Shown here piece by piece: positions 8,939 through 30,206 of a stretch of 32,000 nt of DNA. The notes under the pieces are model-generated. The model made no database searches, was not told the DNA's origin, and saw nothing but the letters and a program-made list of their open reading frames with translations. Both the position numbers and the translations under genes were made by a program. Origin of the DNA: Flavobacteriaceae bacterium (GTDB lineage: Bacteria > Bacteroidota > Bacteroidia > Flavobacteriales > Flavobacteriaceae); assembly GCA_965224465.1 (NCBI GenBank), contig OZ245049.1, positions 3,270,001 through 3,302,000 of the forward strand. Reading direction: 5' to 3'. Numbering within the stretch: the first letter of the stretch is position 1; each line of letters starts with the position of its first letter.

Positions 8939-10261
8939 TTACAAATTAAAACCGAGATTCACGCCTAATTTATCGGCAATAAATCCAGTAATGATAGTTT
9001 TAAGTTGAGGTATTTTTATTTTTTCAATCACATCATTTCCAAAGGCGTATAGCAACAAAGCTTTGGCTTCTTTTTTAGGGATACCACGAGATTGCATATA
9101 GAATAAAGCACTTTGGTCTAGTTGTCCAATAGTACATCCATGAGAACATTTTACATCATCCGCAAAAATCTCTAATTGAGGTTTGGAATTGATCGTAGCA
9201 CCATCATTTATTAAAATATTATTATTTTGTTGAAAGGCATTTGTTTTTTGAGCAGCTTGTCTTACAATTACTTTTCCGTTAAATACTCCTGTAGAGGTGT
9301 CTGCGTATATTCCTTTGTACAATTCATGACTCTCACAGTTAGGAGATTTGTGATCTACCAAGGTGTGATTGTCTACATGTTGATTTTTATTTAAAATAGA
9401 AATTCCATTTAAATGAGACGTAATTCGTTCTCCTTCGTGTTGGAATTCGAGGTTATTTCTCGTTAGTTTCCCTCCAAATGAAAAGGTATTTACAGAAGCA
9501 ACACTGTGTTGTTTTTGTTGTACATAAGTACTGTCTATCAATGTAGAATTATCGGTATCGTTTTGTATTTTATAATAATCTACAATGGCGCGTTTGTTTA
9601 CGAAAATTTCAGTAACAGCGTTTGTAAGGGTGTTGTTTTTGGAAAGGTTGTGGTGGCGTTCTATAATTTGAACGTGAGAGTTTTCACCTACCATAATAAT
9701 ATTACGTGGTTGTAATAACACCTCTTTTTCACTGCCTGTAGCGAAGTTTAAAATCTGAATAGGTTTGGAAACGACGGTGTTTTTAGGGATGTTTATATAG
9801 GCACCCTCAATGGCAAAAGCCGTGTTTAATTCAGATAAGCTATTGGTCTTGTCGGTAATTGTACTAAAATAATTGTCTATGATTATTTTGTATTTTGGTT
9901 TTGAAAGTGCTGCTGAAAGGATGCAAACATCACATTCATCATGCGTAGTTTCTGACAGGAAATTGTTAAACACACCGTCTATAAATATCAGTTTGTAACT
10001 GTCTATTTCGTTGATTAAAAATGGTTTTACATTCTTGTAGCCTACTGTTTCTTTTGTTTCTGTAAACAAGCTGAAATCTTGTTTTAGCAATGGGCGTAAA
10101 TTGGTGTATTTCCATTCTTCATCTTTCTTATTAGGGAATCCTAATTTTTCAAAATTTTGAATGGCTTTTGTGCGTATGTTGTGTATGGATGAGTCCAAGT
10201 CTACAATGCCTTTGTTTTCGAAGGCTATGAAGGAAGATATTAGTTTGTCTTTTAATTCCAT
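8939..10261 (-). CDS. sufD: Fe-S cluster assembly protein SufD
   Basis: 440 aa with the beta-helix-type SufBD C-terminal domain (..SKPQLEIFADDVKCSHGCTIGQLD). Lies downstream of sufC. Confidence 0.9.
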   Translation of the reverse strand: MELKDKLISSFIAFENKGIVDLDSSIHNIRTKAIQNFEKLGFPNKKDEEWKYTNLRPLLKQDFSLFTETKETVGYKNVKPFLINEIDSYKLIFIDGVFNNFLSETTHDECDVCILSAALSKPKYKIIIDNYFSTITDKTNSLSELNTAFAIEGAYINIPKNTVVSKPIQILNFATGSEKEVLLQPRNIIMVGENSHVQIIERHHNLSKNNTLTNAVTEIFVNKRAIVDYYKIQNDTDNSTLIDSTYVQQKQHSVASVNTFSFGGKLTRNNLEFQHEGERITSHLNGISILNKNQHVDNHTLVDHKSPNCESHELYKGIYADTSTGVFNGKVIVRQAAQKTNAFQQNNNILINDGATINSKPQLEIFADDVKCSHGCTIGQLDQSALFYMQSRGIPKKEAKALLLYAFGNDVIEKIKIPQLKTIITGFIADKLGVNLGFNL

Positions 10262-13822: not shown

Positions 13823-13987
13823 TAATAACACGAATTACTATCCAAAATAATCGAGATAAATAGGCTGTTTTACGTTTTAGCGTTGTTAAAAAATAGGACG
13901 AGAAAGGCTATCCTTTGGTTTTTCGCCTAGCTAAAACACACAATTATTCCATTTCAAAACCGTCACTTGGAAATGTGTTTGGTACAA
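13823..13987 (+). repeat. MITE-like intergenic repeat, copy A (most diverged)
   Basis: Aligns along its length with copies C, D and E (..aattactatccaaaataatcg...ccgtcacttggaaatgtgtttggtac). Lies between the suf promoter region and thiL. Confidence 0.75.
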
Positions 13988-15269: not shown

Positions 15270-15635
15270 ATGGGGTTTGATTTAAAATGGGATAAAGACG
15301 ATGTCTATATAAGATTCTATGGGAGCTTGGTTTTACAAGATCTTTTAGAGGCAAATGGCTTGATTTATGGAGACATCCGATTTGATGTTATGATTTTTCA
15401 AATCGCTGATTTTACAGCTGTCGAATGTGTAGATTTATCCAGTGAAGATGCTAAAATAATTACGACATTGGAACTTAGGGCAACGCATTGGAATAGAGAA
15501 GTTACCGTGGTTCATGTAACAAAACATCCGGAGTTAAAACATCTTTTAGGTGTGTATAAAAAAGGGATGGAGCCTACCAATTGGAGTATCGAAATTGTCG
15601 ACACTTTGGAAGAAGCAGAAAAAATGAAAAAATAG
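15270..15635 (+). CDS. Hypothetical 121-aa cytoplasmic protein (family not recognised)
   Basis: Clean ATG ORF with its own promoter box and a strong downstream terminator. No motif I can name with confidence. Confidence 0.6.
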   Translation: MGFDLKWDKDDVYIRFYGSLVLQDLLEANGLIYGDIRFDVMIFQIADFTAVECVDLSSEDAKIITTLELRATHWNREVTVVHVTKHPELKHLLGVYKKGMEPTNWSIEIVDTLEEAEKMKK

Positions 15636-15644
15636 GGCTAGAAT

Positions 15645-15688
15645 GCGTTCAAAACGACTAATACCAGTTGTTTTGAACGCGTTTTATT
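15645..15688 (+). terminator. Rho-independent terminator of the 121-aa ORF
   Basis: gcgttcaaaac (15645-15655) pairs with gttttgaacgc (15670-15680), followed by gttttatt. Confidence 0.6.
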
Positions 15689-15692
15689 GCTT

Positions 15693-15816
15693 TTATTCCA
15701 ACAACAATCCAAAATGATCGATATAAATAGTTTATCTTACGTTGTTAAAAAACAGAACGATAGCTAAGACTATCCTTCAATTTCTAAACCATCACTTGGA
15801 AATGTAGTTGGTATTA
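15693..15816 (+). repeat. MITE-like intergenic repeat, copy B (two internal deletions)
   Basis: Shares both ends and the core ttgttaaaaaacagaacgatagcta with copies C-E. It lacks the segments ttttagcg and ..ctccgtctagctaaaacaaaaaatagttcc. It ends 7 nt from the hydrolase stop codon. Confidence 0.75.
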
Positions 15817-16606: not shown

Positions 16607-16637
16607 GCTGTAAAGATACACTTAAGAAAACATCGAT

Positions 16638-17252
16638 TTAAGGAATAATTAAATTATTAGTAATTCCAAAACGAATCAATTCGATGTTGTTTTTAGCATT
16701 TGCTTTGCTAAATAATTGTTGTTTATGTGATTTTAATGTAGATAGACTGATATGTAATTGGTTGGCTATTTCTTTTTCTGTTGAGTGATCGTAAATGGCT
16801 TGTAATATTTCCAATTGCCTCGTTGTGTAGTGCTCGTTTACTACGAAGTGTTTTTTACTAATGGAATGTTCTTGATGCTGACAGTGTATTTTTTTAATGG
16901 TAGTTGGAAATAGATTAAAATCATCGTCTTTTCCTATAAAACCAGCTGCACCTTCTTTAAATGCAGCATCGCGGATAAAGCTATTGTTTAAGGTGCTTAA
17001 CATAATTAATGTAAAATCTTTTTTTAAGGATTTTAAAGTATTAATATGATCAATGGAACTCTCTCCACAGAAATTTACATCGAGTAAAAGTATATTAAAA
17101 AAGCAAGATTTAACCTGTTCTATGGTATCTTGGATACTCGTGCATTTTGCGATAACTTCTATGTTCTCTTGATTGTCTAGGTGTTTTGCCAATGCCTCAA
17201 CAAAAAAATGATTATCATCAGAAATTATTATTTTATATAGATTTTGTGCCAT
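16638..17252 (-). CDS. Two-component response regulator, NarL/LuxR (HTH) family
   Basis: Receiver domain (IIISDDN, LLLDVNF, GFIGKD) plus a C-terminal LuxR-type HTH (TTRQLEILQAIYDHSTEKEIANQLHISLSTLKSHK). Its start overlaps the kinase stop by 20 nt. Confidence 0.85.
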   Translation of the reverse strand: MAQNLYKIIISDDNHFFVEALAKHLDNQENIEVIAKCTSIQDTIEQVKSCFFNILLLDVNFCGESSIDHINTLKSLKKDFTLIMLSTLNNSFIRDAAFKEGAAGFIGKDDDFNLFPTTIKKIHCQHQEHSISKKHFVVNEHYTTRQLEILQAIYDHSTEKEIANQLHISLSTLKSHKQQLFSKANAKNNIELIRFGITNNLIIP

Positions 17253-17891
17253 GGATAGGTATGTTTATAGTTATAGTGCTTCCTTTCTTTTTTGAGGATT
17301 TTATATCAAAGGTTCCATTTAAAAAAAGACTTCTTTTTTCAACGGATTTTAGACCAAAAGAATTGTTTCTAACTTTATTTTTTTCAAACCCTTTTCCATG
17401 GTCTGAGACCACTAATTGTAAGGTGTTTTTTAAGACCATTATATAGACGTTAATGTTTTCAGTTTTGGCATGTTTAATAGCGTTTGTAACTAGCTCTGAA
17501 GTTATTTTGTAAATATTCATACAGGTACTTTCTGGTAACAGAATATTTTGTAATTGAACAATTGGGCTTATTTTTATTTGAGTGAGTTCTTGCATTTTAT
17601 AGCAATATTCTAAAATGCTGTGTTTAAAATTATCAGCTGTAATATTAGGTGCGTATAAACTATTTAAAAGGACTCTGTAATCTTTAGAAAATGCATCCAT
17701 TATTTGGTTAATGTTTTTCTCATCGCTAGGGTCGTTCATTAAGTTTATTTTTAAGGCAGTTATATATCCGCCAAAAGAATCATGGACATCATTTACCAAT
17801 CTTGCACGTTCTTGGTCTTGAATTTTAAACAAATTGGATTGAAAATCGTTTTTTAATTGGATGTTTTCCTTTGCAAGTTTTATAGATAATA
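17233..17891 (-). pseudogene. C-terminal fragment (HisKA_3 and HATPase_c domains) of the IS30-disrupted sensor histidine kinase
   Basis: H-box ERARLVNDVHDSFGG, N-box TNAIKHA, G-boxes DHGKGF and FGLKSV. The frame stays open upstream of the TTG at 17832 right up to the IS30 boundary at 17891. Confidence 0.8.
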
Positions 17892-19016
17892 GCTGAATTC
17901 AAGTCACAAACGCAACTTTTAGTTAAATAATAATTGTTCCATTACAAATATAGGGTTTTGATATTTATGTCTCTTCCTAGGTCTGTTATTTAATTTTGTT
18001 TCTACCTCTTTGATTCTTTGATCTGTTAGGTTTGTAAAGTCACTTCCTTTGGCAAAATATTGTCTAATCAAACCATTTAAATTTTCGTTAGATCCTCTTT
18101 CCCAAGAGTGATATGGATGCGCAAAAAAGTAATCAATACATAAATTTTCTGCAACCTGCTCATGGCCTGCAAATTCTTTTCCATTATCAGCTGTTATAGT
18201 ATGTAGATAAGGCTTCCAGTCTTCTAATATTTCATTGATAGCTTTAGTGACAACAACTGCTTCTTTAGAGCTTACTTTTTTCATTTTAAGCATTCCAGAA
18301 GCTCTATCATTTACGGTAAGTATGGCTTGATTATGGTTTTTACCTATGATTAAATCGACCTCTAAATCTCCAAATCGATTTCTTTGTTCAACAACTTCAG
18401 GGCGTTGTTCTATACTAATACGATTCTTTATAACCCCTCTAGAATCCTTTGATGAGCCACGTTTTCTATATCTCCTTCCCTGTCTGCGAAGGTGTGTATG
18501 TAAATCACCATCATTCCTCTTGTCTTCCCTAATATGCTGATATATACGCTCAATAGACACCGTTTCTTTACCTTGTTTTTTTAGGACACCAACTACTTGC
18601 TCAGGACTATAATCGTCTCGCAATAACAACTCTATTGCTTGTTGAATATCTTCTGTAAAGCGTTTTCTTTTAGGCTTTTCTTTATGACGTTTAGCATACT
18701 TTTTTTGGGCTAATTCATGCTTGTAAACTCCATTTCTTTTGTCTGAATTACGCTTAATCTCTTTGCTAATAACAGACTTGTCTTTTCCTATAGCAGCTGC
18801 TATCTCAACCTGTTTATAACCTTGTTTTAACATGCAACAAATTGTGTATCTTTGCGCTTGGGTGATGTGTTTCATACAACTTCTTTTTTCGAGATTTGAG
18901 ACCGTAAGATACATATCCATCAAGACAAGAAAGGTAGGTTTTCCTACTTTTCTGTTTTGAAAATATAACCATCATAGAATCAAATCGAAAAGTTGCGTTT
19001 ATTAGTTGAATTTAAG
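17892..19016 (-). mobile_element. IS30-family insertion sequence, copy 1 (1125 bp)
   Basis: Imperfect ~26-bp terminal inverted repeats (gctgaattcaagtcacaaacgcaactttt / aaaagttgcgtttattagttgaatttaag). Flanked by a 3-bp direct repeat ATA (17889-17891 and 19017-19019). By eye, identical to copy 2. Confidence 0.9.
17919..18875 (-). CDS. IS30-family transposase (DDE)
   Basis: N-terminal HTH (MKHITQAQRYTICCMLKQGYKQVEIAAAIGKDKSVISKEIKRN) and a DDE integrase core (DLEVDLI..., ITADNGKEF, WERGSNENLNGLIRQY). The ATG at 18875 is the likely start. Confidence 0.9.
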   Translation of the reverse strand: MKHITQAQRYTICCMLKQGYKQVEIAAAIGKDKSVISKEIKRNSDKRNGVYKHELAQKKYAKRHKEKPKRKRFTEDIQQAIELLLRDDYSPEQVVGVLKKQGKETVSIERIYQHIREDKRNDGDLHTHLRRQGRRYRKRGSSKDSRGVIKNRISIEQRPEVVEQRNRFGDLEVDLIIGKNHNQAILTVNDRASGMLKMKKVSSKEAVVVTKAINEILEDWKPYLHTITADNGKEFAGHEQVAENLCIDYFFAHPYHSWERGSNENLNGLIRQYFAKGSDFTNLTDQRIKEVETKLNNRPRKRHKYQNPIFVMEQLLFN

Positions 19017-20187
19017 ATACTTTTCCTTTGACAACCTCACTTATAATATAATAGGTTACAAGGACTATTTCTAAGGTGATAAAAATATAGAATATATTAT
19101 CGATGATTAGCGTAGAAAAAACACTTAAGTCAAAAGGAGGGTTGTAAAAGGGGTGCCATAGTACACCTATTACTGGTAAGGAAAATGAAATCCCTAAATA
19201 TGTAGGGATGGATTTTTTAACTACTAGTATCCAGTGTATTATAAAGAATGCAACTACAAATAATTTTAAAGCAATCCATATTGATATATATAAATAAGGC
19301 ATTCCTCCTGCCATATATTTGTATAAATAAATAGATAATAAGAACCCTGTAAGTATGCTTATGTATTTAAAAATTTGGCGGTATACGAGTGTTGATTGGG
19401 TGTATTTGTAAAAATGCATAAAAAACAAACTTGCAGTAAAGGTAGCAGCTGTTTGTGAAAGGCTACGGATATTGTGAATTAAAAAAGAGGACTCATTCCA
19501 TAAGTATTGAATCCCTATCCCTTTGGCAGCGAGGTATTCTATCATGATAAATAGAATGTAAATAGCATACCATAGTAAACTGTTTTTTTGCTGTATTAAA
19601 GATAAAAATACAATAATCAAGAGTAGTGAACATAAAAAGGATAAATATATCCCTGTGCTAAAATAGTCAAATTGTGTTTTGTTTAGAAAATCGTTGTGTG
19701 ATAGCAATTCCATTTTTAGCCTAGTTCTAGGCTCGTTATCTTTTATCTTTATAAATACAGAAAAGGATTCTGTGCTTTTAGATATTTTCCATGTAGGGTA
19801 TCGGTAAAAAATAGTTTTAAACGGGAATTTTTTATCGTAGCTAACTTGGTGTAGCTCTTTAAGGAAGGTTGGAGTTTTTATATAAACCTTGGCATAATGT
19901 AAATACACATTTTCAATAATCAAATAGTGTGATTCGTTGAAGGAATCTAATTTTAAATGAATCCAAAAAGCACTGTTTTTATCTAGTTTTTGATATGTCT
20001 TATTCTTTAATGTGGAGGTGAAAAGACCGCTTTTTTGTAGGCGTAAGATTTCTTGAATACCTAACGAATCACGTGCGTCTCTATAAATATTTATTTGCGT
20101 GTTCTTTAAAGATGATTTTGAACAGGATTGTCCGAAGATAAGACAGATTGTGTATATGATTATTCGGATAGCATGAATTTTGAACAT
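19012..20187 (-). pseudogene. N-terminal fragment (7TMR-DISM extracellular and 7-TM sensor module) of the IS30-disrupted histidine kinase
   Basis: Signal peptide, an extracytoplasmic domain of about 150 aa, then seven hydrophobic helices. The stop codon at 19012-19014 is supplied by the IS30 terminus. Confidence 0.75.
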
Positions 20188-20263
20188 AAGATAATTTTAA
20201 CAATAAGCATACTTAAGTATCAGGAGAATACTAAGTGAACTCAATAGTTTTAGCGATTATTAA

Positions 20264-20775
20264 ATAACACTTTTTTCTATATGGATCGAAACTTTAAAAA
20301 TAGTACTAGATGCATTAAATCCATCGGGTTTATTGCTGCAGAACACGGCGTATTATCAAGGGACGGCGCTGTATGTTTGCGCACTTTCAAAAATCACTTA
20401 CTTTAATGAGAAAAAGATTCAAGACTATTATATAAGGGTAAGCCTTAGATACAATAAACGACATTTTTTTGACTTTATCAAGGAACCCAAAACAAATACC
20501 CAATTCATTTTATGGGCTGCCTCAGATATTGTTGTGATACGCGATAGTGGAACAGCGTTGCATGTGATAAAAGATATTCTCACTAATTTAAAGTGTTGGA
20601 ATTATAGAACCTAAGAATTCCATAGCCATAAATAGGAAGGATTACTGTCTGGACATAGTGGTTTTAGGCGGGCTGTTAAGAAATTAGCAATAGATCTCCC
20701 ACTTCTAATTACGAGATATTCAACGGAAGCAGCTATTGGTGCCTTATTAATAAACGGATTAAGAAAACAGGAGTA
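20264..20775 (+). pseudogene. Decayed class-3-lipase-like gene remnant
   Basis: A single frame reads ..QFILWAASDIVVIRDSGTALHVIKDILTNL..-TAA(20612)-..-TAG(20633)-..GHSGFRRAVKKLAIDL..ITRYSTEAAIGALL. This resembles the lipase_3 pattern (..RGT..D..DL, HSGF, GHSLGGA) but with two in-frame stops and a degenerate nucleophile elbow. It is cut off by repeat copy C. Confidence 0.35.
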
Positions 20776-20938
20776 ATACTAATTACAATCCAAAATGACT
20801 GGTGTACATAGTTTATTATACGTTCTATCCTTGTTGAAAAACAGAACGATAGCTAAGGATGTCCTTAGATTTTTCGCTTAGTTAAAACAGAAAATAATTC
20901 TTTTTCTAAACCGTCATTTGGAAATGTATTTGGTATAA
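20774..20938 (+). repeat. MITE-like intergenic repeat, copy C
   Basis: taatactaattacaatccaaaatgac...ccgtcatttggaaatgtatttggtataa. The termini form an imperfect inverted repeat of about 26 bp. Confidence 0.8.
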
Positions 20939-21014
20939 GGGGTAAAAGAATGTGATGGTGCTAGATGATAAAAAAACCATTCTTTAGTATGAGGTTTTAA
21001 TAAGAGATTGAAGC

Positions 21015-21022
21015 TAGTTTTG
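21015..21022 (+). promoter_or_regulatory. Candidate -7 box TAGTTTTG for the 566-aa ORF
   Basis: Exact TAnnTTTG match 30 nt upstream of the ATG at 21053. Confidence 0.4.
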
Positions 21023-21052
21023 TGATGTTACAGATTCAAAAAAGATATAAAG

Positions 21053-22753
21053 ATGAAAAATAGTTGTTTTTTAATGTTTTTTCTTATGGTTTCTTATTGT
21101 TTTTCTCAAGAAACCGAAATTAAAATAGACAGTACGGATACTGGGGATTACCATTTAATACGTGTTGAGGTAGACGGTGTATTAAAGAAGTATTTTGACT
21201 TAAGAGTGGAAGATAAAAAAATCATTTTAAAAGCAGACCTCTTAGCGTATTATAAAAATAAATTTGAAATGGAATATGAGGTTGAAATCAGCAAGTTAAG
21301 TATTAAAGTTAGTAGAGCAGGGAGCCTAGAGTATTCGTATGATATTAACAAAAAAATAGATAGAACATTGTTTCAGGTTGTACTGGCGGATGTTTATAAA
21401 GAAAGGTATGTGTTCTCAGATATAAAGAGGCAATTGGAGGTGTTTAAAGATAAGGAAGAAAAAAGTGTAATCGGAAAAATAGAAATATTTAAGAAAAATA
21501 AAATTCAAATTCATAAGGTTAATAAAGGTAAAGTTTTGTTTTTTAATAAAAGATCGTTTACATCTGAAAAAGAAGATTTTGTGATTATAAAATCAATAAT
21601 ATTACATATTAGAAAAGGTGCTATTTATGAGGTTCTTATCGAAGGGGAGCCTAATAGAAAATTATTTATAACGAATACTATTAAAGAGTCTGACAGTGTT
21701 TTAATACCTACAAATAAGCAATCAAATAGCATTCATTATCATAATAAAACAAGAAAGAACAACATGAGAAAAAAATATTTTCACAGTATGGATTACCCAA
21801 TATTGTTGGAAAGAATAACGCCTATAGGAGCTCTAACAGTTTCTTCGGATGTTAATAGAACGTATAATTTAAATCGTAGGCAGGATAAAAAAAGACATAA
21901 GATAATAGACAAGGGTAATCCTAATAAATTCATCTATTTAGACGATGTATTAAGGTATGTACCTGTGGTTAACAATCATTTTGTGCCTAAAGATGACCTG
22001 TTTAATATAAAAGTTACTGATCAATTACAGGAAGTGAAAATTATAAAGGATGTCCATTTGAATTCATATATAGAGGCAGCTGTTTATACAGATTTGTTTA
22101 GTTTGCTTGGAGATGCTGCGAATGGGCAAGTTCAAACAGAGTTTAATTCAAAAATATATTTAAATATTAAAAATATAGGATCATATTACGGGTATCTTTT
22201 TCATTATATACAGCCAAGTATTAAACATTCTTTATTTAAAGATGAACATATGTATTTAGAAATTGAAAATGGGGACGTTAATTTTTCAAAAACCAATTTA
22301 TATAGGCGTTCATATCTAAATTTAGGTTTGAAACTTAATTTATTTAAGGGAGAACTTTCCAATAGGTTTGAAGCTGACGTGAGTATTGGGACTAACTATT
22401 GTTTTACAAAAACTAAAGATAAACAAGAGGTTATATATAACGAAAAATTATGGAGTAAATATATAGGTTTAGAATTGTCTGTGAATGATTTTAAGAATTA
22501 TGGATTAAAAGGGTTTATTAAATATTCACATATTGATGACCCTAAGGTGAAAATCTACACGAAAGATGTATTTAAGGAAAAAGAAGATTGGTTTGTTTCT
22601 GTTGGTTTTGAATTGTTTTACCACCCTGTAAAAGACAAAGGGAATAAATGGTTTTTTAAATTTAACTATGTCTCAAACCAAGAAAATCATGAGGATGATT
22701 TTTCTCAAATCCAAGTAGGATATAAAATACCAATTAGGTTTAAACAAAAATAA
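21053..22753 (+). CDS. Hypothetical secreted protein with a predicted C-terminal outer-membrane beta-barrel
   Basis: Signal peptide MKNSCFLMFFLMVSYCFSQE. The C-terminal ~230 aa show alternating hydrophobic beta-strand patterns (YLNLGLKLNLF, KYIGLELSV, WFVSVGFELFY, WFFKFNYVS, IQVGYKIPIRF). Very Lys/Asn/Ile rich, and no family recognised. Confidence 0.7.
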   Translation: MKNSCFLMFFLMVSYCFSQETEIKIDSTDTGDYHLIRVEVDGVLKKYFDLRVEDKKIILKADLLAYYKNKFEMEYEVEISKLSIKVSRAGSLEYSYDINKKIDRTLFQVVLADVYKERYVFSDIKRQLEVFKDKEEKSVIGKIEIFKKNKIQIHKVNKGKVLFFNKRSFTSEKEDFVIIKSIILHIRKGAIYEVLIEGEPNRKLFITNTIKESDSVLIPTNKQSNSIHYHNKTRKNNMRKKYFHSMDYPILLERITPIGALTVSSDVNRTYNLNRRQDKKRHKIIDKGNPNKFIYLDDVLRYVPVVNNHFVPKDDLFNIKVTDQLQEVKIIKDVHLNSYIEAAVYTDLFSLLGDAANGQVQTEFNSKIYLNIKNIGSYYGYLFHYIQPSIKHSLFKDEHMYLEIENGDVNFSKTNLYRRSYLNLGLKLNLFKGELSNRFEADVSIGTNYCFTKTKDKQEVIYNEKLWSKYIGLELSVNDFKNYGLKGFIKYSHIDDPKVKIYTKDVFKEKEDWFVSVGFELFYHPVKDKGNKWFFKFNYVSNQENHEDDFSQIQVGYKIPIRFKQK

Positions 22754-22829
22754 ATTTAAGAGAGAAAACGTCCATTATACAGCTTTAATCGCTTTTAAAA
22801 CAACAACAGCTAACGTAATTTATTAAAAC

Positions 22830-23954
22830 GCTGAATTCAAGTCACAAACGCAACTTTTAGTTAAATAATAATTGTTCCATTACAAATATAGGGTTTTGAT
22901 ATTTATGTCTCTTCCTAGGTCTGTTATTTAATTTTGTTTCTACCTCTTTGATTCTTTGATCTGTTAGGTTTGTAAAGTCACTTCCTTTGGCAAAATATTG
23001 TCTAATCAAACCATTTAAATTTTCGTTAGATCCTCTTTCCCAAGAGTGATATGGATGCGCAAAAAAGTAATCAATACATAAATTTTCTGCAACCTGCTCA
23101 TGGCCTGCAAATTCTTTTCCATTATCAGCTGTTATAGTATGTAGATAAGGCTTCCAGTCTTCTAATATTTCATTGATAGCTTTAGTGACAACAACTGCTT
23201 CTTTAGAGCTTACTTTTTTCATTTTAAGCATTCCAGAAGCTCTATCATTTACGGTAAGTATGGCTTGATTATGGTTTTTACCTATGATTAAATCGACCTC
23301 TAAATCTCCAAATCGATTTCTTTGTTCAACAACTTCAGGGCGTTGTTCTATACTAATACGATTCTTTATAACCCCTCTAGAATCCTTTGATGAGCCACGT
23401 TTTCTATATCTCCTTCCCTGTCTGCGAAGGTGTGTATGTAAATCACCATCATTCCTCTTGTCTTCCCTAATATGCTGATATATACGCTCAATAGACACCG
23501 TTTCTTTACCTTGTTTTTTTAGGACACCAACTACTTGCTCAGGACTATAATCGTCTCGCAATAACAACTCTATTGCTTGTTGAATATCTTCTGTAAAGCG
23601 TTTTCTTTTAGGCTTTTCTTTATGACGTTTAGCATACTTTTTTTGGGCTAATTCATGCTTGTAAACTCCATTTCTTTTGTCTGAATTACGCTTAATCTCT
23701 TTGCTAATAACAGACTTGTCTTTTCCTATAGCAGCTGCTATCTCAACCTGTTTATAACCTTGTTTTAACATGCAACAAATTGTGTATCTTTGCGCTTGGG
23801 TGATGTGTTTCATACAACTTCTTTTTTCGAGATTTGAGACCGTAAGATACATATCCATCAAGACAAGAAAGGTAGGTTTTCCTACTTTTCTGTTTTGAAA
23901 ATATAACCATCATAGAATCAAATCGAAAAGTTGCGTTTATTAGTTGAATTTAAG
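22830..23954 (-). mobile_element. IS30-family insertion sequence, copy 2 (1125 bp)
   Basis: Same sequence and orientation as copy 1, offset by 4938 bp. Flanked by a 3-bp direct repeat AAC (22827-22829 and 23955-23957). Confidence 0.9.
22857..23813 (-). CDS. IS30-family transposase (identical to the copy-1 protein)
   Basis: The ORF-track translations of the two copies are identical. Confidence 0.9.
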   Translation of the reverse strand: MKHITQAQRYTICCMLKQGYKQVEIAAAIGKDKSVISKEIKRNSDKRNGVYKHELAQKKYAKRHKEKPKRKRFTEDIQQAIELLLRDDYSPEQVVGVLKKQGKETVSIERIYQHIREDKRNDGDLHTHLRRQGRRYRKRGSSKDSRGVIKNRISIEQRPEVVEQRNRFGDLEVDLIIGKNHNQAILTVNDRASGMLKMKKVSSKEAVVVTKAINEILEDWKPYLHTITADNGKEFAGHEQVAENLCIDYFFAHPYHSWERGSNENLNGLIRQYFAKGSDFTNLTDQRIKEVETKLNNRPRKRHKYQNPIFVMEQLLFN

Positions 23955-23988
23955 AACTGTATTAAAGCAATGGTGTTTTAATACAGTT
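23955..23988. terminator. 12-bp-stem hairpin at the IS30 copy-2 insertion site
   Basis: aactgtattaaa (23955-23966) pairs with tttaatacagtt (23977-23988). Before the insertion this hairpin lay about 75 nt after the stop of the 566-aa ORF. Confidence 0.5.
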
Positions 23989-24015
23989 CAAAGGATTCGT
24001 GTTTTTTATTTGAAT

Positions 24016-24165
24016 TCACGGTATTTTCTCATAAGTACCTTGGTGAGTCATAGTTATGCTGTCCGAGATGCCATTTTTATAGCGTCTGATTGTTTTTCCG
24101 GTTGTAGTGGTTGTAATTTTGATGCTTCCTCCTTGATAACAAACAGGATCTTTTTTTAGTAACAC
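24016..24165 (-). CDS. Possible small ORF or gene remnant (49 aa, GTG start)
   Basis: The minus-strand frame reads (V)LLKKDPVCYQGGSIKITTTTTGKTIRRYKNGISDSITMTHQGTYEKIP-stop. It looks more protein-like than the overlapping plus-strand ORF 23944-24159, but has no ATG start and no recognised family. Confidence 0.25.
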   Translation of the reverse strand: MLLKKDPVCYQGGSIKITTTTTGKTIRRYKNGISDSITMTHQGTYEKIP

Positions 24166-24189
24166 TGTGTTTTTTAAGCCTGTATAGTC

Positions 24190-24348
24190 TTATACTAATT
24201 ACCATCCAAGATGACGGATATAAATAGTTTATTTTACGTGCTAGCGTTGTTGAAAAATTGAACGATAGCTATCCTTAGAATTTCCGCCTAGTTAAAACAA
24301 AAAACAATTCCATTTCTAAACCGTCACTTGAAAATGTATTTGGTGTTA
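24190..24348 (+). repeat. MITE-like intergenic repeat, copy D
   Basis: ttatactaattaccatccaagatgacgg...ccgtcacttgaaaatgtatttggtgtta. Full-length copy. Confidence 0.8.
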
Positions 24349-24454
24349 ATTACTTGTATACAAATTATTTAAGAAGGGTTATGGGCATAAGTCGTGAGCT
24401 GATTTAACGTATGTTAATATTTTTTATTTAGCATTCTAAGTCATAAAAATAGCC

Positions 24455-28863: not shown

Positions 28864-28905
28864 ACGGTCTGTAAATGAATCCAAGTTAAATTCAAGTGTG
28901 AAAAC

Positions 28906-28938
28906 AAAAAAATGCCCGAATATAACGGACATTTTTTT
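28906..28938 (+). terminator. Probable recJ terminator
   Basis: aaaaaaatgcccg (28906-28918) pairs with cggacattttttt (28926-28938) with one mismatch. The 3' arm runs into a T tract. Confidence 0.5.
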
Positions 28939-28959
28939 GTGTATGGATTATACTATTTA

Positions 28960-30051
28960 GGCTCAACTTGTAAATAGCGTATTTATTTCGTAACTTACTG
29001 AAAAACAGAATCATTATGGATAATTCAGCTATTTTAAAATATTTTGACTGTCTAGATGTAACTAAGCAGGATATTTTGCTTAAAGAATTCCAGTCTCTTT
29101 GCAAATCAGGAAGTTATGTAGACATTATTAAAATGAGAGGGAATGCTTTAGATGACAGAAGAGGTGAATGCCCTTACTGCAATGGCTATCACTATATAAA
29201 AGCAGGTGTAGATAAAAACAGCAGGCGTTATAAATGTAAAGATTGTAAACGTACTTTTACTGAATTTACCGGCAGTTGGCTAGCTGGGATACACAAAAAG
29301 CAACGCATACCAGCCTTTTTAAAAACACTTGAATTGAATTTAAGTTTGGTTAAAACAGGAAAGGATCTTTCCATAGATCCAGGGACGGCATTTAGATGGC
29401 GTCATCGTTTTTTGTCTGCTATGTTTCAAGAAACCACAGGTTATTTCAAAGGAATCACCGAGAGTGATGAGACCTTTTATTTACACAGTCAAAAAGGTAA
29501 AAAGTGTGTACATAGACCTCCCAGAAGTAGATCCGAAAAGAAAGGGGGCAGGTATAACAAAAGAATACGCAACGGTATTAACAACCCAAGATAGAGCAGA
29601 ACTATGCGTGTCTAAATTTACAAATATGGGCAGAATTACCAAGAGTAATATAAAAAACACTATCGGAAGCATGGTAGATAATAGAACCATATTTTGTTCT
29701 GATGGACACCGTAGTTTTACAGGGTTTAGTAAGGATTTACATTTAGAGCATCATGTTTTAAACAGTAGTAAAAACCAACGAGTCAAAGGGACTTATCATA
29801 TTCAGCACATCAATAGTTTGCATAGTAGGTTAAAGACATTTTGTAACGTGAAATTAAAAGGAGTATCCACAAAATATCTTCAAAAATATTTAAATTGGCA
29901 AACAATTAAAGATTCATATCGTAAAGAATCAAATTGGGTAGTTACTGTCCTTAAGTACTCAATGAAACGTTCAAATGCAATTCAAATATATAACAATATC
30001 CAAACTGATTATGACAAAATTTTTATAACAACGCTAAATGCTAGTTGAGCC
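28960..30051 (+). mobile_element. IS1595-family (ISXO2-like) insertion sequence, 1092 bp
   Basis: Terminal inverted repeats GGCTCAACTTGTAAATAGCGT and GGCTCAACTAGCATTTAGCGT (reverse complement of the right end), 17/21 identical. Flanked by a perfect 8-bp direct repeat ACTATTTA (28952-28959 and 30052-30059). Confidence 0.85.
29016..30048 (+). pseudogene. IS1595-family transposase split by a +1 frame change
   Basis: The N-terminal zinc ribbon (CPYCNGYHYIK...YKCKDCKRTF) and the start of the DDE domain (ITESDETFY) are in frame 3. The rest of the ISXO2-like domain (..KRKGAGITKEYATVLTTQDR...CSDGHRSF...HINSLHSRLK) is in frame 1. The switch maps to the gaaaagaaaggggg homopolymer stretch at about 29535-29548. 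Confidence 0.8.
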
Positions 30052-30206
30052 ACTATTTACAATCTAAAATAACGGATATAAATAGTTTATTTTACGTTTT
30101 AGCGTTGTTAAAAAACAGAACGATAGCTATCCTTAGATTCTCCGTCTAGCTAAAACAAAAAATAGTTCCATTTCTAAACCGTCACTTGAAATTGTACTTG
30201 GTATTA
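30052..30206 (+). repeat. MITE-like intergenic repeat, copy E (its first 12 nt lie at 28948-28959 on the other side of the IS1595 insertion)
   Basis: Removing the IS and one TSD copy gives ttatactatttacaatctaaaataacgg..., matching the left end of copies C and D. The right end ..ccgtcacttgaaattgtacttggtatta stops 14 nt before the EEP gene stop codon. Confidence 0.8.

Follow-up and report, generated by a model that had tools for sequence, protein, structure and literature searches.

The stretch of Flavobacteriaceae DNA analysed here (32,000 nt, referred to as the window) carries the gene order sufA, thiL, hydrolase, ClC, OsmC, recJ, and Exo_endo_phos, which is shared by the related regions L009-L014; tRNA and tmRNA genes are absent from the window. 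Between thiL and the hydrolase gene there is an ORF of 121 aa without a Pfam match (15270-15635), which has a counterpart in L014 (118 aa) and none in L009 or L010. The hydrolase and ClC genes are separated by a 7.8-kb stretch (16622-24441) that is absent from four relatives with the same gene order, where ~110 bp of unalignable DNA lie between the two genes. This stretch contains a disrupted two-component system, two identical copies of IS30 (17892-19017 and 22830-23955; 1126 bp, 2-bp duplications, ends GCTGAATTCAAGTCACAAACGCAACTTTT / TCTTAAATTCAACTAATAAACGCAACTTTT), a gene for a 566-aa protein without a Pfam match (21053-22753), and two of the repeat copies described below (C and D). The first IS30 copy interrupts a sensor histidine kinase gene (17233-20187), whose 7TMR-DISM sensor part lies at 19012-20187 and whose HATPase part lies at 17233-17832; a LuxR-type response regulator comes next (16638-17252). 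Further along, between recJ and the Exo_endo_phos gene, we found an IS1595-family element of 1092 bp on the + strand (28960-30051) with inverted ends GGCTCAACT, bordered on both sides by the 8-bp duplication ACTATTTA (28952-28959 and 30052-30059). Its IS1595-type DDE domain is encoded in a frameshifted gene (overlapping ORFs 29016-29594 and 29464-30048), and the split is due either to a frameshift mutation or to programmed frameshifting.

When the window was analysed with a repeat finder and MAFFT alignment, a repeat of ~155-160 bp was recovered in exactly five copies, at 13823-13987 (A), 15693-15816 (B), 20774-20938 (C), 24190-24348 (D), and 30050-30206 (E). Two degenerate patterns built for the ends each match these same five places only, all on the + strand, where shuffled sequences are expected to give 0.00-0.01 matches. 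The number, places, common strand, and intergenic position (5/5 copies) of the repeats are thus as given in a preliminary description of this DNA, which had also suggested a consensus search; with a profile made from the five repeats, nhmmer detected no sixth copy in the window and did detect copies elsewhere in related genomes. The length of the element proper is 118-159 bp across copies. The copies have no ORF conserved among them, and their indels are not multiples of three.

Copy A (13826-13987, + strand; element 13829-13984) lies in the intergenic region between the divergent genes sufA and thiL, is flanked by TAA (13826-13828) and CAA (13985-13987, one base mutated), and is 87.7% identical to the family consensus. 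Copy B (15693-15816, + strand; element 15696-15813; flanks TTA / TTA) has convergent genes on both sides and stands directly after a terminator-like hairpin (15639-15686, 20-bp stem); the alignment shows that ~8 + 33 nt of its interior (~41 nt) are gone, in agreement with the internal deletion first reported. Copy C (20774-20938, + strand; element 20777-20935; flanks TAA / TAA) falls within the 7.8-kb insertion peculiar to the window and lies 115 bp upstream of the gene for the 566-aa protein, and copy D (24190-24348, + strand; element 24193-24345; flanks TTA / TTA) has an IS30 copy on one side and the ClC channel gene on the other. Copy E, between the convergent recJ and Exo_endo_phos genes, is broken by the IS1595-family element after its first 12 nt. 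Its left 12 nt (28948-28959, + strand) consist of the flanking TTA plus TACTATTTA, and the remainder occupies 30060-30206 (+ strand), with the element ending at 30203 and a second TTA at 30204-30206. The preliminary description had recognized the split and the left piece correctly, but its right part began at 30052 and so overlapped the 8-nt duplication of the insertion sequence; because 30052-30059 is the duplication made by IS1595, the restored copy is 28948-28959 + 30060-30206.

The closest ThiL on record to that of the window is 93% identical, and the nearest relatives are Flavobacteriaceae MAGs, mostly of the North Pond subseafloor aquifer series. A strict right-end pattern searched against 185,579 species genomes gave 4 matches, all in three North Pond Flavobacteriaceae MAGs, and by this pattern the relatives appear to hold 1-2 copies per assembly. 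The same pattern gave 3 matches in a metagenome scan and none in viral contigs, and BLAST against plasmid and phage collections returned no real match. One of the metagenome matches (L005) was set aside, as it lies on a GC-rich contig and is most likely a chance match of the kind expected at the pattern's information content. The copies in relatives occupy sites unrelated to the five in the window. They include a full-length copy (L003), a copy with insertions (L001), an orthologous pair consisting of the two ends only (L002 and L004, 70 and 79 bp), and relics in which mainly the right end is kept (L015/L016/L018 and L006/L007). The two host species of the orthologous pair are only 84% identical in DNA, and a hairpin-only derivative has persisted at a shared site, where the element is more diverged than its immediate flanks. 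Relatives for this site were sought through the adjoining GH130 gene, which belongs to a very large family, and the best matches were 83-85% identical. In L016, at 9895-9925 (and at the same place in L015, L017, and L018), ~85 bp upstream of thiL, 13 nt, TGTAGTTGGTATT, are identical to the right end of the B/L002 subtype, in the sufA-thiL interval where the window has copy A; nhmmer does not report this place, which could hold an extremely decayed relic or a chance match. We concluded that the family is confined to a narrow Flavobacteriaceae clade, with different sites in different species. A literature search did not find a named Flavobacteriaceae MITE of the same type, and the family appears to be undescribed.

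The ends of the repeat form imperfect terminal inverted repeats of ~25 bp (left TACYAAWTACAATCCAAAATGACSG, right CCGTCAYTTGRAAWTGTNNTTGGTA), and similarity between copies stops abruptly at them. Across 23 positions, 83% of the sequence-by-pair cells pair, and sliding the partner by 1-3 columns lowers this figure to 23-36%. The ~26-bp inverted repeats proposed earlier are therefore real, except that their outer TwA falls outside the repeat: the element proper starts with TACYAAWTACA and ends with TGTNNTTGGTA. In the aligned ends the outermost 3 nt are direct repeats, TTA...TTA or TAA...TAA, in six of the eight independent copies, namely B, C, D, and E in the window, L003 (TAA / TAA), and the L002 + L004 pair (TTA / TTA; one orthologous site, counted once); the others are A and L001 (TAA / TGC). 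The middle base of the flank is the same on the left and right in all seven independent informative copies (p ~0.008 if the two sides are independent). This is the opposite of what is expected for an inverted repeat or a selected stem, which would read TTA...TAA. The flanking TTA/TAA is a 3-bp T-W-A target-site duplication, and insertion is possible either way round relative to the target. The preliminary description reported no visible target-site duplication, and the duplication was overlooked because it had been counted within the "TwA" of the inverted repeat.

For the window copies, identity is 88-91% to the consensus and 78-88% between one copy and another. The divergence is star-like, as expected for insertions from one master sequence that decay independently. 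With 12-22% divergence from one another the copies show no sign of recent activity, and the copy closest to the consensus (L003, 96% identity) is found in another species. Copy B (15696-15813) and L002 (97-165) have CCATCA + GTAGTTGG variants in common in their right arms, which suggests that they may represent a subfamily; the left-arm positions opposite those variants are changed in copy B as well, and its arms are still complementary.

Next, we compared the occupied sites with their counterparts in five related lineages, taking from each the 21 kb that surround thiL. Four of the lineages (L009-L014) keep the gene order of the window, with ThiL 91-93% identical and genes ~80% identical by BLASTN, while the fifth (L015-L018) matches only up to thiL. 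No copy was detected by nhmmer at any of the five window sites in the four syntenic lineages, nor at site A in the fifth. The window exceeds L009 in length in exactly those intervals that hold elements: 584 bp versus 255 bp for the interval of A, 688 bp versus 131 bp for B, 1364 bp versus 133 bp for E, and 7.8 kb versus 112 bp for C and D together. The element is thus absent from the five orthologous intergenic regions, as shown for each interval and not to the base, since the intergenic DNA of the relatives is too diverged to align across the insertion points. We regard this outcome of the site comparison, which the preliminary description had named as a check of mobility, as good but not perfect evidence that the element moved.

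Taken together, the repeats are small and non-coding, they carry terminal inverted repeats and a target-site duplication, and their copies are dispersed at unrelated sites, as is typical of MITEs. MITEs abound in Bacteroidota and are for the most part genus-specific there (PMC11602168), and the repeats are therefore read as another family of this known type. The T-W-A duplication, the star-like divergence, the absence at orthologous sites, and the deletion derivatives elsewhere that keep the ends all bear out the MITE-like, non-autonomous nature first proposed from the window sequence. We consider it likely that they are a MITE family, old and decayed, that belongs to a narrow clade of Flavobacteriaceae, a DNA transposon of ~155 bp without coding capacity. 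For its spread we infer a transposase-mediated mechanism, as we do the identity of the parent. A DDE-type transposase from an autonomous IS with matching ends, encoded elsewhere, would bind both inverted repeats and make a 3-bp staggered cut at T-W-A, and repair would copy TTA or TAA to both sides. On this reading the window copies stem from an old insertion wave, each ~10% decayed from the master sequence. Because of this decay, the interior loss in B, and the IS inserted in E, the window copies are probably no longer mobile.

Neither IS type of the window qualifies as the parent, in line with the preliminary description, which saw no obvious parent in either. The IS30 ends are unrelated to those of the element, and the resemblance once noted between an IS30 end and the core of the inverted repeat amounts to a short motif at chance level. 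IS1595 is likewise not the parent, with its different ends and a duplication of 8 bp. The window and ~250 kb of related loci revealed no autonomous element whose ends match, the related loci gave no further end-like sequence, and no IS5-family element was present in the window or in the fetched related loci. Among eukaryotic transposons, PIF-Harbinger and Tourist elements prefer TWA (TTA/TAA) targets. A 3-bp duplication is reported for the MITEs of this type (PMC2213677). Within the IS5 family, an exclusive 3-bp direct repeat at TNA is the hallmark of the IS1031 group (PMC12016507). The T-W-A flanks observed here (TTA/TAA) obey the IS1031-group rule, whereas the inverted repeat given for that group, GAACCTGTCTAGTATCT (PMC12016507), is unlike the TACYAAWTACA of this element. 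On account of the IS1031 TNA duplication and the TWA duplication of PIF-Harbinger/Tourist elements, an IS5-family parent of IS1031 type would be the best lead by analogy, as a candidate only.

Two interior motifs are common to the repeat and the IS1595-family element. The sequence TTTAGCGTTGTTAAAAAA (A 13876-13893, E 30098-30115) is identical in 17 of 18 bases to the subterminal part of the IS1595 right end (30021-30038), and the adjacent (T)GAAAAACAGAA equals nt 40-51 of the IS1595 left end (28999-29010); the two matches have blastn-short E values of ~0.001 and ~0.017. The point at which IS1595 inserted into copy E is ~45 nt from the shared TTTAGCGTTGTTAAAAAA motif. From sequence comparison, the sharing could be due to chance, to a chimeric origin of the MITE, or to a transposase-binding motif that attracted IS1595. 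A variant of the MITE reading that we consider unlikely is mobilisation by a transposase group undescribed in Flavobacteriaceae, either IS5 / PIF-Harbinger-like with strict T-W-A targeting or an enzyme recognising the IS1595-like interior motif, with some copies perhaps recruited by the host as terminators or mRNA-end stabilisers. The possible recruitment is raised because hairpin-only derivatives are kept across species and the central hairpin is terminator-like.

Orientation bias is typical of single-strand transposition, and all five window copies lie on one strand. The copies could accordingly be palindromic units of the REP/BIME or ERIC kind, spread by recombination or by an HUH/RAYT transposase and possibly functional in the host (mRNA 3' end stabilisation, termination). 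Several copies adjoin intrinsic terminators, between convergent genes or just past stop codons, and the hairpin-only derivative kept at one orthologous site in two species with DNA 84% identical would also suit such a unit. However, 5/5 on one strand has a chance of only 1 in 16, a bias that was put forward in the preliminary description and is not significant. GC skew is positive over the whole window, so that all five copies are on the G-rich strand, but in L001, L003, and L002/L004 the element is on the opposite strand relative to the local skew. A replication-linked orientation bias is therefore not supported across genomes, and with no consistent skew orientation the model of HUH-type single-strand transposition is weakened. 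HUH-type elements, moreover, are without terminal inverted repeats and target-site duplications, both of which are present here, the window contains no RAYT, HUH, or IS200-like gene, and 155 bp is far above REP size. A REP-like nature, which had been offered as an alternative, is thus very unlikely. Strong intrinsic-terminator hairpins at gene ends adjoin B (15639-15686), E (28905-28940), L006 (12995-13025), and L015 (12718-12740), and in L004 the TAA duplication coincides with the stop codon that ends the gene upstream. Such siting may mean that insertions are tolerated there, or that TAA stop codons or hairpins are preferred.

We also examined whether the repeat is a structured RNA, since its ends can form a closing stem of ~25 bp and its centre can form a hairpin. 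The ancestral centre, GATAGCTAGGGCTATCCTTAG, contains two overlapping palindromes, of which the first is kept in B, L003, and L001 and the second in A and C; in D and E a 6-nt deletion leaves the loopless GATAGCTATC. The preliminary description had a central palindrome at the same relative position in every copy, but built from different bases. This is right in part: a true two-sided change, one in number, is seen in copy A alone, and the other differences come mostly from the two overlapping ancestral palindromes and the D/E deletion. Single copies fold at -21 to -40 kcal/mol on either strand, and both strands fold well because of the long inverted repeat. A T-run after the second hairpin in A, C, L003, and L001 is weakly terminator-like (the scan flagged C at 20853-20868). 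A small RNA, a cis-regulatory leader, or a 3' element whose stem and hairpin are under selection would be in keeping with these features, with the two-sided change in A that preserves a central hairpin, and with two two-sided changes in the terminal stem of copy B. Against such an RNA family, a search of Rfam 15 found no family at the gathering threshold, and the copies stayed without a match even at E<=10. RNAalifold on nine copies predicted the terminal stem only; it counted 0 compensatory pairs, and its covariation term was positive (penalising). For a hand-drawn terminal stem of 23 pairs the covariation score was 0.089 versus 0.082 in shuffled alignments, and 78/500 shuffles reached it, so that it does not stand out from them (9 sequences, low power). 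Copies B, D, and E no longer have the terminator-like central hairpin, the strict Bacteroidetes -7 box (TAnnTTTG) is absent from every copy, a scan for outward promoters at the right end detected only a relaxed TTTC-N18-TGnnTTTG in 3/5 copies, and no promoter or terminator is common to all copies. Neither strand is favoured, because G.U and A.C mismatches occur on both. The gene context is mixed, with divergent pairs for some copies and convergent pairs for others. The direct TTA/TAA flanks are a mismatch that a selected stem would shed, and the L002/L004 element, being diverged beyond its flanks, argues against strong selection on its sequence. The structured sRNA suggested as an alternative in the preliminary description is consequently highly improbable.

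That the copies are instead non-mobile, as conserved UTR parts of neighbouring genes or as segmental duplications, would agree with their restriction to intergenic DNA and is hardly credible, since the genes beside different copies are unrelated to one another, similarity has an abrupt border at the inverted repeats, and the same intergenic regions are empty in the four lineages with conserved gene order, which rules out the conserved-UTR idea.

Correia elements (CREE / NEMIS) of Neisseria are ~155 bp long, with ~26-bp terminal inverted repeats and a 2-bp TA duplication. They number hundreds per genome, and promoters, IHF sites, and RNase III processing are documented for them. Among known systems these would be the closest in architecture to the MITE family described here, by analogy in size, length of the inverted repeat, internally deleted variants that keep the ends, intergenic position adjoining gene ends or starts, and a short A/T duplication. 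In contrast, the sequences are unrelated, the phylum is another, and the duplication is 3-bp T-W-A and not 2-bp TA. Tourist / PIF-Harbinger elements share the 3-bp TWA duplication, the small non-coding format, and the terminal inverted repeats, with no sequence similarity, so that the analogy is one of mechanism only. The family also resembles the MITEs catalogued in Bacteroidota and Flavobacterium (PMC11602168), which are small, genus-restricted, and intergenic, have inverted repeats and target duplications, and occur in Flavobacteriales.

MITEs are routine in bacterial genomes, and the value of the finding is therefore mainly one of annotation: the MITE reading accounts for five puzzling intergenic repeats. 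It also depicts a stretch of chromosome that has been struck repeatedly by mobile DNA, with five MITE copies, two IS30 copies, one IS1595, and a 7.8-kb insertion. What is new is the T-W-A duplication together with the clade restriction. The duplication provides a handle for locating the parent transposase in the complete genome, and the family is a lineage marker for a poorly sampled marine/subseafloor clade of Flavobacteriaceae.
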